From NCBI GenBank assembly GCA_963744715.1, contig CAVUUR010000004.1, positions 1-64,000 of the forward strand: DNA of 64,000 bases. The letters are read 5' to 3'. Both the position numbers and the translations under genes were made by a program. This DNA is from an uncultured bacterium (lineage in GTDB: Bacteria; Babelota; Babeliae; Babelales; JACPOV01). Shown piece by piece: positions 11,683-50,329 of this stretch (the stretch's first letter is position 1; every line of letters starts with the position of its first letter). A model generated the notes under the pieces. The model was not told where the DNA came from. It saw nothing but the letters and a program-made list of their open reading frames with translations, and made no database searches.

Positions 11683-12411
11683 ATGAATTTTATTACAAAA
11701 CTTTCACTATGTATGTTTCTGGTATGGAATAGTTCACAGGGCATGATTTCTAATTTATATGAACCATTTTCAAAAATAATAGGCCAAAAGAGCTTTGCGC
11801 GTATCGCTGGTATCTGCCCTGCATTATTCAAGCAAGAAGGTGTATCTTATGCAAAAATATTTTTCGCAACGTCAATAGGCCTTGCAGGCTTATGGCTTTT
11901 GAAAGAAAAAATCATAATAGACGAACGAAACGCTTATGTTGCCAATATCAACAATATGCGCATATCTCCCATGACTCAAGAAGATCTAGAATATTGGCAA
12001 AAAGAATACCTCACGATACCTTACAATGATCCGCTTATTAGATTATTAATTCCCTTTGAAGAACTAAGCTGGAAAGGTATACCTGACGTTCCTCTATCAT
12101 GCTTGCATAATATTATGAATGGTTCTGCTCAATACATAATTGTGCCAAGAAGTTTACTAGAAAAAATCTTATGCAGTCCTGTGCATATATATGTAAAAAA
12201 GCAGACTATACTCAACAATTTAAAGGATCTCAATCGGAAATTTAAAAAAAATAGTTTTACGTTCAATGGCGCAGATCATAATTTTATAAAAAACTTTGCA
12301 TATCTAGAAACAAAAGGCTTAGTAAGGAGAACTTCGAATTGTGCTGGTGACGCAGCCTCTGTTTATACTAAGGGACCAAATTTTCCATTAACCCTTTTAC
12401 CTCCTGAATAG
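11683..12411 (+). CDS. Secreted hypothetical protein
   Basis: Long ORF; ATG 11683 gives a signal peptide ending SQG-M. Confidence 0.55.
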   Translation: MNFITKLSLCMFLVWNSSQGMISNLYEPFSKIIGQKSFARIAGICPALFKQEGVSYAKIFFATSIGLAGLWLLKEKIIIDERNAYVANINNMRISPMTQEDLEYWQKEYLTIPYNDPLIRLLIPFEELSWKGIPDVPLSCLHNIMNGSAQYIIVPRSLLEKILCSPVHIYVKKQTILNNLKDLNRKFKKNSFTFNGADHNFIKNFAYLETKGLVRRTSNCAGDAASVYTKGPNFPLTLLPPE

Positions 12412-12494
12412 TTAGAAATGTTGTTAATTGAAAGATTTGCATCACACGTGTAATGTTTTTGTGACAACATATGCGTTGAAAAAAGAAACACGGC

Positions 12495-13277
12495 ATGAAA
12501 AGATTATACAAAAATTCAAATATCACTATAGACGGACCGATGCTCGATAAGGTTAAAGTCAATTTTGCTGATGCCATTGATTTTAATCAATATCCTTTTT
12601 GTTTACCTATAATAAAAAATTTGAAAGATAAGGATATCGAATTTCCGACGAACGTAACTTTTTTTGTTGGTGAAAACGGAAGTGGTAAATCAACTATTCT
12701 TGAAGCGCTCGCTCATCAAATCGGTTTCGGGCCAGAGGGTGGCAGCAAAAATATTAATTTCAAAACATCCCAAGAAAAAACATACGTAGCCGCACAACAT
12801 TTGGCCGAACAACTCACACTTTCTTGGCGCATGAAACCACGCCATGGCTATTTTTTTAGGGCAGAAAGCTTTTTTAACGTTGCTAATTATATCGATTATT
12901 TAGGACCTGATTTATATCCCTATTATGGAGGGAAATCACTGCATGAACAATCACACGGCGAGAGTTTTCTGGCATTTTTCAAACACCGTTTAGGCACCGG
13001 CGGATTTTTTATATTTGATGAACCTGAAGCCGCACTTTCACCACAACGTCAACTATCATTATTGGTTATTATCAATGAACTGTGCAACAATGGCAACACG
13101 CAATTTATTATTGCAACACACTCACCACTACTCTTGGCATACCCGCATGCGACCATTTATTCTTGTGACTCAGGCGTTCTTGAAAAAATTGCCTATACTG
13201 ACACCATGCATTATCAGATTACCAAACGCTTTTTGGATAATCCTGATGCCTATTTCCAACACTTATTTAAAGACTAA
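12495..13277 (+). CDS. ABC-type/AAA ATPase (COG3910-like, stand-alone)
   Basis: Walker A GENGSGKST, FFRAES, QSHGE, Walker B IFDEPEAALSP and IIATHSP. Confidence 0.9.
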   Translation: MKRLYKNSNITIDGPMLDKVKVNFADAIDFNQYPFCLPIIKNLKDKDIEFPTNVTFFVGENGSGKSTILEALAHQIGFGPEGGSKNINFKTSQEKTYVAAQHLAEQLTLSWRMKPRHGYFFRAESFFNVANYIDYLGPDLYPYYGGKSLHEQSHGESFLAFFKHRLGTGGFFIFDEPEAALSPQRQLSLLVIINELCNNGNTQFIIATHSPLLLAYPHATIYSCDSGVLEKIAYTDTMHYQITKRFLDNPDAYFQHLFKD

Positions 13278-13341
13278 TATTTGAATATCAAATAATTTAA
13301 AGATAAATTTTTACGAGCCTCTTTAAATAAATTCAAATTTA

Positions 13342-13614
13342 TTACCGTTGACACTGTGGCGCTTCGGTAGTTTTTTGTTCACCTGCATTACCCAAACGGG
13401 AGGCCTTAAGAAATTTTTTAATTCTATCAAATTCTTCTTGGGTAACGATAATAGAGCAACGATTATTATCAGCTTGTATTGTAGTTTTTTCCAGTACCAA
13501 TGTGCGGCTGTTGTCTTGTTCTTTATTAGTCCTCTGTTGTTTTTCTGCTTCCATGGCATGTATTGAATCTAATACAACTAGATTTAATAGCAATACTATT
13601 CTCTTAATGTTCAT
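13342..13614 (-). CDS. Small secreted hypothetical protein
   Basis: AAGGAG RBS; signal peptide ending IHA-ME. Confidence 0.6.
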   Translation of the reverse strand: MNIKRIVLLLNLVVLDSIHAMEAEKQQRTNKEQDNSRTLVLEKTTIQADNNRCSIIVTQEEFDRIKKFLKASRLGNAGEQKTTEAPQCQR

Positions 13615-47676: not shown

Positions 47677-47783
47677 ACAAATCTCATAGAGTAAGGCTAC
47701 CAGATATCAACGCATATTTTTTTGTTAACAGGTAATAATCTGATGCTATCATGATACTAAAAAAATTCAAAATTAACTGGGTA

Positions 47784-48626
47784 TTAAAAATTATATGTAA
47801 CGCTGATTGCAGGGTTACCTGATTTATCAGTAGTAATATCAATAGTACATTCATCGGCACGCAAGAATGCAGCGACGCGTTTATGTGCGGCCATGCCATA
47901 TACAACACCCAATGCAGTGCCGGCAACTACTTGTGAAGCATAATGCCGGTTAGCCGTAACACTAACAATTGCCATAGCCGTTGAACATAATCCTAAAGGA
48001 ATCCATGCCTTTAACCCATATTCTAAACCGTATGTCATCGTCATAAAAACCATTTCAAACATATGCCCCGAAGGAAACCCGCCATGTGACCGTTGTACTG
48101 AACTAAATTGTTCATGCCATGGCCGTAAATTGGCATTAGTTTTTGCTATTTTTGCCACATCTTTGAGCACAAGCCCGGAAAATAATCCCAACGCAAATAA
48201 GCGACTCGTTGTTCGTAATCGTTTATCAGGAACAAAAAGAGCAAGCCCTGCACCGGAAAAAACTATAACTGAAACCGTTTTTTCGATTCCTTTAGAAAAC
48301 TTGCGTGGCATTTGGTTAATATTTTTATGATGCAATGGATCATAAAAAAACTGTTGTACCGGATCATCAGCGGCCCGCGTTATCAAATAGAGTGGCGTAA
48401 ACGCCGTTAAAATTTTTGCAGAATCTACACTCAATAAATTACGATGCAACCAAGCAAAATCTTTTATGGCAATACCAACTTCATTCATACTACGATAAAA
48501 AATGTTATGGGAAGTTTCTTTTTTTGTATCAGCCGTAATAGTTTGATGTTGTTCGATAGAAGAAAAAGTATAAAAAATCTGCATGCTCATACATAGTACG
48601 CAAAAAAACACCTTTCTTATACACAT
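47784..48626 (-). CDS. PAP2-family phosphatase
   Basis: K......LRP, GFPSGH and RHYASQVVAG motifs; paralog of 45901-46748. Confidence 0.85.
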   Translation of the reverse strand: MCIRKVFFCVLCMSMQIFYTFSSIEQHQTITADTKKETSHNIFYRSMNEVGIAIKDFAWLHRNLLSVDSAKILTAFTPLYLITRAADDPVQQFFYDPLHHKNINQMPRKFSKGIEKTVSVIVFSGAGLALFVPDKRLRTTSRLFALGLFSGLVLKDVAKIAKTNANLRPWHEQFSSVQRSHGGFPSGHMFEMVFMTMTYGLEYGLKAWIPLGLCSTAMAIVSVTANRHYASQVVAGTALGVVYGMAAHKRVAAFLRADECTIDITTDKSGNPAISVTYNF

Positions 48627-48838
48627 TTCTTTACCTTTCAATCAACTGAAAATAGTGAACAAAAGGAACTTCCAATGATTTAGTATAACAAATTATCATA
48701 AAATTAAGACAGTACAACAAGCTCAAGTTACTTAAATCGATAAATTTTATTAACGAGTTTTGCTATTTAATGTATTATAGAAATATTCAAGAGTATTATC
48801 CTAATTACTTAACTAGCTAAAAAAATTGTTTTAACAAC

Positions 48839-50329
48839 ATGAATAGTATATTTACCAAATTTTTCATTATTATTTTGTGTTGTGCGACGATGATACTGTA
48901 TAGTATGGAAAATCCTAATAATCATTGGGCTATAAGCGTAGAATGCTCCGATCAAAAAACGATGCACCAGGTTTCAAGGAGTCTTTTAATGGATAACTCC
49001 ACAACTCTCAAGCATATGCTTGAGGACGTTCAGCCCACTGAAACTATAAAAATACCATACTTGAATTCGGAGGAGTTTAATGATTGGTATAAATTTATTC
49101 AAAATCCAGATACACTGCCATATATGTATCCCGACAAAGTACCTGAAGAGACTTTGCTCCCTAGTCTAATTAATATTATAAAAGCAACACACTACCTTGG
49201 TGATGATAATGATACGTTAAAAAATGTGTTATACCGTAAACAGTATTCCAGTGCACTCGTAACAAAACTAAAAGAAAACCCTGCCTATTTAAGCGCTGAT
49301 TTGGAACGTATTATACGGAAAGATATATTATGCACTTTCTATTCTATACTACCGCCTATACTCAACCCTCATCAGACAAAAATACCTAGTTATATTACCA
49401 GCATTAAAGATATCTTGCATTATATCCACTCCACGTTAGTGCCTACGCCGAAAGCCCTGTCGACAACAATACCTATTTCTAATATTCAAACTAAAACGAC
49501 AGAAAATATTTATAGTGCATACAAACTTCGATCAGTACCATCTCTTGAGGAATATTTCTTGCCATTTAAGAACAAACAAATGGCACAAGAGCTTTATAGG
49601 AGCTACAATACAGAAAACCTTGCTATTGTTTTGAAAAAAAATAAATCAAAATTATGGGAATATCCTTCATTTCTTCTAGACAAGTTGGTTTGGAGCTCGG
49701 ATGATAAATATCTAGCAATTCCAATAGAAAAGGAACGGCAGCCACATGGTCTCTATCTTTATGATCTATCAAACATCAACTGGAATACACAAGAACCCAA
49801 AAAAATAATAGAGGGTGATATACGAGCCGATGCTATACTACCATTGACTATCGACCAAAAACAATTTTTTATGATAGCTTCCAATTATGATACCTACGAT
49901 ATTTCATTGATCCTTTTACTGCATCTTACTAATAACCAACCTTATTATACGTTGTTCTGTGAAATTTATGAAAAAATACATTCACTTGCACTAAACAATG
50001 ACAATAAAATATTAGTAGCTTCAGCACAAAATAATGTCTACCATATAGATCTTAAAGATCTTGATAATCTCTATCTGGAATACCTAGATAATGTACGAAA
50101 TTTACCCTTAAAGGACCTTCTTACTTTGCACATTAAGCCAAAAGATCAAGATGCCGTAGCAGCAGCAAAAAAAATATACGATGAAAAAAAATCTGAACAA
50201 GTCGCACAAAATAAAAGAAAGTTTATCAACACATGGTTCAAAAAAATTAATCTTGGCTTTGGTGGGTTTACCAGCAGTTGCGCACTGGGATATGTACTAT
50301 ATCAATCAGTAAAAAACTTCTTTACATAA
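48839..50329 (+). CDS. Secreted Skp1/BTB-like protein with degenerate beta-propeller and C-terminal hydrophobic tail
   Basis: SVECSD, STTLKHMLED, IKIP and IIKATHYL; later WSSDDKYLA and SLALNNDNKILV. Confidence 0.65.
   Translation: MNSIFTKFFIIILCCATMILYSMENPNNHWAISVECSDQKTMHQVSRSLLMDNSTTLKHMLEDVQPTETIKIPYLNSEEFNDWYKFIQNPDTLPYMYPDKVPEETLLPSLINIIKATHYLGDDNDTLKNVLYRKQYSSALVTKLKENPAYLSADLERIIRKDILCTFYSILPPILNPHQTKIPSYITSIKDILHYIHSTLVPTPKALSTTIPISNIQTKTTENIYSAYKLRSVPSLEEYFLPFKNKQMAQELYRSYNTENLAIVLKKNKSKLWEYPSFLLDKLVWSSDDKYLAIPIEKERQPHGLYLYDLSNINWNTQEPKKIIEGDIRADAILPLTIDQKQFFMIASNYDTYDISLILLLHLTNNQPYYTLFCEIYEKIHSLALNNDNKILVASAQNNVYHIDLKDLDNLYLEYLDNVRNLPLKDLLTLHIKPKDQDAVAAAKKIYDEKKSEQVAQNKRKFINTWFKKINLGFGGFTSSCALGYVLYQSVKNFFT

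Follow-up and report, generated by a model that had tools for sequence, protein, structure and literature searches.

Background

In Bacteroidetes, glutamine directly follows the signal peptidase I (SPase I) site in about 70% of substrates and in all compartments, a pattern described as the Q-rule (PMC5837995; PMC10653852). Here, we report a methionine predicted to be exposed at the signal peptide cut (position +1) in an uncultured bacterium of the phylum Babelota, starting from a 64,000-nucleotide stretch of its genome (contig CAVUUR010000004.1 of assembly GCA_963744715.1, positions 1 to 64,000, i.e. G000:C4:1-64000), referred to below as the window. Like the Q-rule, this pattern concerns a lineage-specific residue placed right after the SPase I site of unrelated families and potentially tied to the stability of exported proteins. 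Unlike it, the pattern combines Met with an acidic residue at +2, involves about a quarter of the substrates, is limited to effector-like and orphan cargo, and is patchy within its phylum.

Signal peptides are abundant in Babelota, with signals on 44% of coding sequences and 78% of ankyrins in Chromulinavorax (PMC6561590) and on 79 of 126 ankyrins in Babela (PMC4378268). These published signals resemble ours by their abundance on ankyrins and orphans and by the proposal of type II secretion as their exit; by contrast, the word "methionine" is absent from the main texts of PMC6561590, PMC4378268 and PMC4776705, where no +1 rule is described. The available text of PMC12172432, PMC10165199, PMC8163844 and bioRxiv 10.64898/2026.03.27.714854 describes no +1 Met rule either. 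No description was found in the full-text literature searched, a coverage that excludes subscription papers and supplements, whose SignalP tables might show it. With up to 44% of genes bearing signals, mostly orphans, nothing separates effectors from envelope proteins in this phylum.

Other systems share single features with this pattern. In Plasmodium, plasmepsin V cuts PEXEL proteins at RxL and leaves an x-Glu/Gln/Asp N-terminus on proteins exported from the vacuole, a comparable processed end that is produced there by a eukaryotic enzyme. Schnupf is said to have connected listeriolysin O with the host N-end rule in 2007; this would likewise be a secreted protein of an intracellular bacterium read by that pathway, as one degraded protein versus the proteome-wide, presumably stabilising signature considered here. 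Many phytoplasma SVM signals end in Ala-Met. These are also Sec signals carried by effectors of an intracellular bacterium (PF12113; PMC8026896), and they form one homologous module, unlike the mutually unrelated signals of our genome, in which PF12113 gave no match over the cut-off (best E 0.12).

Methionine at predicted cleavage sites across the genome

The genome (G000; 1.26 Mb in 12 contigs, 86% complete) yielded 1237 proteins called with our own scripts, among which 438 were signal-like, or 467 with a relaxed choice of starts; this set is imperfect in both directions, as 11 of 327 annotated rows proved cytoplasmic and some genuine signals were missed. Its ATP/ADP translocase, encoded by three genes, has homologues labelled Babeliales/Dependentiae at 59% identity (two of the 120 matches listed had a taxon name). 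Two contigs have a GC content far from the rest, C1 (3.3 kb, 61%) and C8 (5.4 kb, 46%), a possible bin contamination.

Cut sites were predicted with a home-made n/h/c model, in which the emission of Met was held at background at +1 and set higher in the h-region; the predictor therefore does not favour Met behind the cut. Met nevertheless occupied +1 in 117 of the 438 signal-like proteins (124/467 with relaxed starts) against a background of 1.9%, and in 83 of 232 confident calls, with only 8, 13 and 10 of the 438 showing Met at +2, +3 and +4. Gln, which the Q-rule places at +1 in most substrates, was found there in about 8% of these proteins and Met in 27%. Without any cut-site model, a small residue followed by Met occurred between residues 14 and 34 in 184 of 523 N-terminally hydrophobic proteins versus 30 of 446 soluble proteins, and between residues 60 and 80 in 33 and 26 of them. 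Similarly, 54% of the 307 Met at residues 15-34 were preceded by Ala, Ser, Gly or Cys, versus 17-27% for nine other residues. These results indicate a real, genome-wide and lineage-level pattern of predicted Sec/SPase I signals with Met exposed at the cut, and they confirm in silico that the predicted cuts precede the Met, as the earlier note on this DNA had assumed from the window alone.

The signals span 16-30 residues with a basic n-region, a hydrophobic h-region and, in our own model, a small residue at -1, position -3 being mostly Leu, Ile, Val, Cys or Ala rather than Ala only. G000 encodes SecA and one LepB, which is common to the Met and non-Met classes. Seven further signal-like proteins carry Pro or Thr before Met-Asp/Glu/Gln (e.g. 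CKP/MDN, the slash marking the cut), outside the small-residue rule; locations include C12:70838-74127, C2:166753 and C10:28582.

Residue following the methionine and its conservation

Counts were made on one representative per family (85 of 358 being of the Met class), paralogues and related genomes not being statistically independent. After the +1 Met, Glu was found in 31 of these 85 families, Asp in 19, Gln in 11 and Asn in 5, so that Asp, Glu, Asn or Gln occupied +2 in 66 of them (78%, versus 29% at +3 to +10). Both small (9/85; 11% versus 33%) and hydrophobic residues (6/85; 7% versus 26%) were depleted. Initiator methionines are removed before small residues. Net charge at +3 to +15 did not differ between the Met and non-Met classes, and the acidic residue is therefore tied to +2. 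Met-Asp, -Asn, -Glu and -Gln are described as NatB substrates, unacetylated Met followed by a hydrophobic or basic residue as a target of UBR proteins, and Arg, Lys, His, Phe, Trp, Tyr, Leu or Ile, and likewise Asp, Asn, Gln, Glu or Cys, at position 1 as degrons (PMC11735805). The +2 spectrum, rich in NatB-type residues and depleted in Met-hydrophobic ends, agrees with the NatB and Arg/N-degron classes of that source. Unlike NatB substrates, in which Met is the initiator on a host ribosome, Met is here predicted to be exposed post-translationally by a bacterial peptidase.

Position +1 was also the most conserved near the cut in homologue pairs, with identities of 0.45 versus 0.04-0.12 at +3 to +12 (100 pairs, 22 families) and of 0.74 versus 0.14-0.43 in a second set (35 pairs, 17 families), these pairs not being independent and being conditional on a Met in their first member. 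Met status behaved as a family trait: among 55 families, 13 were all-Met, 34 without Met and 8 mixed. At least one Met member was present in 89 of the 358 families.

Cargo of the methionine class

Cargo was hand-labelled for 300 of the 312 signal-like proteins of the fetched loci and for 27 of the window, with Pfam matches (E 1e-6) over the first 520 residues. Met occupied +1 in 7 of 14 ankyrin, 7 of 8 WD40 and 3 of 4 leucine-rich repeat (LRR) proteins, i.e. in 17 of 26 eukaryote-like repeat proteins, versus 0 of 38 envelope-type proteins (0/24 envelope, 0/14 probable envelope), a zero that is inflated since the hand-labelled class also counts lipoproteins and membrane anchors, which may not be LepB substrates. 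The earlier expectation that effector-like proteins would be favoured over envelope proteins is thus borne out, with a compartment range narrower than that of the Q-rule. Other enzymes (4/35) and proteins with no Pfam match (62/217) were intermediate. Among 72 Met-class orphans scanned with looser settings, about a dozen gave weak matches to ankyrin, WD40, tetratricopeptide repeat, LRR or Skp1. The Met and non-Met classes were not separated by C-terminal features, hydrophobicity or signal length.

A BC-box-like motif, searched as a consensus by regular expression, was found in 9 of 145 Met-class proteins of G000, 2 of 322 other signal proteins and 0 of 440 cytoplasmic ones, the contrast being weak in relatives (2/118, 3/422 and 0/474, respectively). 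It suggests a potential recruitment of Elongin BC/cullin. The motif lies about 10-30 residues past the +1 Met in WD40 proteins and orphans, with further sites at C12:110909-113467, C6:158879-161009 and C7:68623; in the window, two WD40 proteins carry what we take to be such a motif, one at 37721-38950 and one at 16373-17629, in the latter about 25 residues past the cut.

The N-terminal domain of the window proteins starting at 41734 and 48839 defines a second group of potential host mimics. A 23-row profile of this domain matched Skp1 structures in the PDB (best SKP1a, E 2.7e-17) and Pfam Skp1_POZ was matched in 13 of the 23 family members, in contrast to a single-sequence PDB search, which gave no match; an AlphaFold model of 48839 computed without alignment reached a pLDDT of 39. 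These secreted-type proteins may mimic the SCF adaptor of the host. The distance from Met to the domain ranges from -4 to +138 residues; in one relative (G025 L086:7573) the +1 Met falls at about the position of the Skp1 start Met, and within a few residues of it in two or three others. The family counts 33 members in the protein pool, often in tandem arrays, at window positions 40037-41734 and 48839-50329, on contigs C5, C6, C9, C11 and C12 of G000 and at loci L068, L069, L083, L085 and L086.

Several normally cytoplasmic enzyme families of G000 also have signal-like N-termini, without Met: NDK, phosphoribosyltransferase, thioredoxin reductase, LigD phosphoesterase, DOT1-like methyltransferase and MazG (located at C2:106018, C2:146823, C12:32446, C12:44312, C12:94184 and C12:105181).

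Distribution in Babelota and beyond

Eighteen relatives were sampled over 80-120 kb each, some regions being picked near WD40 matches, which raised the Met fraction in the first batch. Ten of them showed +1 Met in 12-42% of their signals (92/359), and the other eight in 0-9% (9/181). A SecA tree of 30 genomes, rooted at its midpoint, had two well-supported clades, of which one was entirely low (0-4% in the four genomes sampled); the other gathered all high-Met genomes together with four low ones, a single high-Met subclade being weakly supported (88/67). Among signal-bearing ankyrins, 6 of 24 carried Met within the low clade, versus 0-4% of all signals there, and 4 of 11 in the high group. One genome (G020) had no Met in 21 signals and a single ankyrin match. 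In another low-Met genome, some 40 short ankyrin genes are arrayed at G068:C1:1389000-1432000; the predicted signals of this genome often expose Ala (8 of 28 sampled outside the array).

As an out-of-phylum control, GTDB contigs were scanned for signal-like starts ending in Ala-Met-Asp/Glu, which returned at least 119 stretches, 80 of them with names and flanks; neighbouring signals were scored with the seed gene excluded, and one locus had no callable genes. Nine loci were counted as Babelota, five by name and four by Babelota-type translocases. Met occupied +1 in 27 of 70 signals at these nine loci and in 0 of 141 at 70 other loci. At Bacteroidota-named loci, Gln occupied +1 in 35 of 72 signals, the predictor thus recovering the Q-rule. 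Two energy parasites outside Babelota (G092 and G088; canonical TLC, SecA 59-61%) had no +1 Met in the few signals of their housekeeping regions (0/2 and 0/7). By eye and with the seed included, in-frame signal-like starts ending in Ala-Met-Asp/Glu and Ala-Ala-Asp/Glu stood at 3:5 in G092 and 1:2 in G088, versus 12:0 in G000. If an effector code of this type exists, it was possibly reached in part by other energy parasites, G092 being a weak lead. Signal/Met-Asp/Glu genes occur in these genomes at G092:C5:26610, C9:3481 and C50:1907 and at G088:C4:11292, and two near-identical signals of G092 differ at +1, with Met at C9:3481 and Ala at C9:19497.

Export route

Secretins were found in 61 of 61 genomes of the phylum, with two or three per genome searched and two in G000, in line with the two described for this phylum (PMC4776705). 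The type II gene set of G000 includes GspE-type ATPases, with GspF- and pseudopilin-like genes read by eye at C10:1361-5900. FHIPEP and VirB4 had no match in 21 phylum genomes; the TolC family was present in 10 of these 21 and was not found in the incomplete G000. Type II secretion is the sole dedicated secretion system found and a candidate exit for the Met-class cargo; it is also the only system named for Babela, which grows inside a vacuole (PMC4378268).

Potential function and origin of the exposed methionine

The explanation that best fits these observations, and to which we grant an even balance of belief, is that effectors leaving by type II secretion receive from SPase I an N-terminus that is host-like, free of degrons and of NatB type, under selection for half-life in the host. 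Sec export followed by LepB cleavage would expose the Met, the type II system would carry the cargo out, and this cargo would reach the host cytosol; its Skp1-like, BC-box-like and repeat domains may meet host partners there. With an acid or amide residue in second position, Met would be kept, and both Met-hydrophobic degrons and exposed Asp, Glu, Gln, Leu or Lys would be avoided; the same pair matches the NatB consensus and acetylation may follow. Selection for half-life would then retain Met on effectors and not on envelope proteins. Beyond the sequence statistics, we infer each of these steps. A wider version of this scenario, more doubtful and put forward tentatively, makes the signal peptidase a maker of fake initiator methionines, by which around a hundred unrelated effectors per genome would pass as self to NatB and N-recognins, or would be read by a dedicated vacuole translocon.

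Several observations weigh against a host-directed N-terminus. As already mentioned, eight of the 18 relatives nearly lack the signature, half of the scored ankyrins of G000 have no Met, the envelope class is imperfect and the counts are not independent. In addition, none of the 13 ankyrins scored in G010, G013 and G014 carries Met, the residues after Met in the ankyrins of the low-Met clade (Gly, Pro, Gln, Pro, Thr and Ala) are not acidic, and five Skp1-like proteins of G004 are devoid of Met. Ala, Ser or Gly at +1 would also be stabilising, and avoidance of N-degrons alone therefore fails to explain the preference for Met-Glu. The eukaryote-like N-terminus proposed in the earlier note remains a candidate and the best fit to the +2 spectrum; NatB is described as ribosome-tethered and co-translational (PMC11735805), which makes the acetylation of imported proteins uncertain. 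Finally, the vacuolar growth of Babela implies that delivery to the host cytosol would need a further step.

The free Met-Glu/Asp end could instead act as a sorting tag for a second export step, as also suggested in the earlier note, and be read by the type II secretin, by a chaperone of the periplasm or by a translocon in the vacuole membrane. This reading is the main rival; we consider it rather unlikely, and the strict cargo bias speaks for it. A comparable role has been proposed for the xE/Q/D end left by processing on Plasmodium PEXEL proteins; type II systems, on the other hand, are generally held to read folded structure, which counts against such a tag. Met and non-Met signals are alike in length and hydrophobicity, and the information would therefore sit at +1/+2. 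The two or three secretins of each searched genome and growth in a vacuole (PMC4378268) also speak for a tag, yet the secretin pair is also present in genomes with 0-4% Met, many ankyrins lack Met and no receptor was identified. A bacterial stabilising rule acting in the periplasm, or a P1' preference of LepB, appears improbable. Lineage-specific +1 rules do stabilise exported proteins (PMC5837995; PMC10653852), but the Q-rule spans all compartments (PMC5837995) and Met is absent from the envelope-type proteins here, a zero on which we rejected the LepB preference; moreover, one LepB serves both classes, and only two GNAT matches were found, no search aimed at glutaminyl cyclase having been made.

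That the Met is a functionless relic, left where captured eukaryotic or cytoplasmic genes received a signal ahead of their start codon and then spread by duplication, is of similarly low probability. The family-level inheritance of Met status and the Skp1-like member roughly in register with the Skp1 start Met speak for it, and grafting may have seeded some cases. However, Asp or Glu is the second residue in 9 of 121 cytoplasmic proteins versus 82 of 124 after the +1 Met, a difference that led us to reject an old start of bacterial cytoplasmic genes; the Met-to-domain distance of Skp1-like proteins is variable, Met members are scattered over many families, and Met outlasts its neighbouring positions. 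The signals are not one module, their identity being 0.136 among Met and 0.135 among non-Met signals, and a shared grafted module was discarded on this equality and on the lack of an SVM_signal match. The grafting onto ancestral starts suggested in the earlier note is thus weakened as a reason for retention and kept as a potential origin in some Skp1-like genes. A second translation start at the Met, yielding a cytoplasmic form of each protein, is highly improbable. An in-frame ATG after the signal makes it conceivable, and one WD40 gene is called in the database from residue 19 onwards, but none of the 124 genes (relatives 0/101) has a Shine-Dalgarno match (at least 4 bases) ahead of the +1 Met, as opposed to 86 of 124 real starts and 283 of 5584 deep internal Met, which led us to reject this alternative.

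If the wider scenario of fake initiator methionines is true, this almost uncultured phylum would use an effector code of a single line, valid across the proteome. Behind the cut, Met-[E/D/Q/N] offers a specific but incomplete predictor of effectors that covers about a quarter of the G000 secretome. The pattern would be the second lineage-specific +1 rule after the Q-rule, the first seemingly aimed at a host, and would allow tests of whether entire bacterial secretomes are shaped by the N-degron and acetylation pathways of the host.

Genes of the window

The nine junctions between signal peptide and Met listed in the earlier note are all present as written in the sequence; that note located them by their start codons, the Met sitting 16-30 residues further downstream in each (Table 1). 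A cut right before the Met was the best-ranked in eight of the nine (posterior 0.73-1.0), the exception being 45069, where the Met site ranks second. Over the window, +1 Met was found in 8 of 27 signal-like proteins, versus the 1.9% background (p about 3e-8). The claim of at least six unrelated families has to be lowered to five, namely four WD40 paralogues, two Skp1-like proteins and three orphans, because the WD40 genes are paralogous and 41734 and 48839 share the Skp1-like domain. Leaving aside 11683, whose Met-Ile end is not of NatB type and does not belong with the Met-Asp/Glu/Asn signature under which it had been grouped, Met-Asp/Glu/Asn/Gln follows the best cut in seven of the eight genes, and the second cut in 45069. 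As previously claimed, DacB, two fasciclins, the barrel-like 32726 and 14641 and the fibre 31064 have no +1 Met; for barrels this holds in the window and not genome-wide, where Met occupies +1 in two of the 12 proteins whose C-terminus is barrel-like, with Phe or Val at +2.

Table 1. Signal-bearing genes of the window discussed in the text, with their predicted cut (slash) and, where present, the codon of the exposed Met
Feature	Position	Strand	Predicted cut	+1 Met codon	Posterior
Orphan secreted-type protein, 242 aa, 20-aa signal	11683..12411	+	SQG/MIS	11743-11745	0.97
Orphan, 90 aa	13342..13614	-	IHA/MEA	13552-13554	1.0
WD40 protein, 328 aa	15239..16225	-	VYS/MDD	16166-16168	1.0
WD40 protein, 418 aa	16373..17629	-	AYA/MDL	17573-17575	0.99
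WD40 protein, 365 aa	36631..37728	-	LCS/MDM	37678-37680	0.99
WD40 protein, 409 aa	37721..38950	-	LYS/MDM	38894-38896	1.0
Skp1-like N-terminal domain, then weak LRR, 565 aa, 30-aa signal	40037..41734	-	LYG/MDK	41642-41644	0.73
Orphan, 272 aa	45069..45887	+	IHS/MNE (second-ranked, after HQA/IIH)	45129-45131	0.13 (0.82 for HQA/IIH)
Skp1-like N-terminal domain protein, 496 aa	48839..50329	+	LYS/MEN	48905-48907	0.99
Ankyrin protein, counter-example with signal	8088..9119	-	no +1 Met
DacB (peptidase S13), envelope control	1910..3172	-	VQS/VPK, no Met
Three fasciclin-type genes, envelope control (two scored; Pfam on 43576 only)	43094..44745	-	IMA/QTT, no Met

Two of the three database copies checked begin downstream of the true start: those of two window WD40 proteins (36631-38950) begin at residues 9 and 19, the latter for 36631..37728, and have partly or wholly lost the signal, which indicates that gene callers can clip such signals. 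A homologue search with 38950 returned itself, its paralogues and generic WD40 proteins only.

Two other regions of the window, both on the reverse strand, have disturbed reading frames. A giant, repetitive fibre-like region spans 18899-31064 in three consecutive long open reading frames (1821, 978 and 1145 aa), with a GC content of 42-47% versus 35% elsewhere and possible frameshifts or assembly trouble. At 52000-54700, an amidase reading frame, which we take to be GatA-like, lies in pieces over three frames, likely reflecting low-quality sequence or a broken gene.

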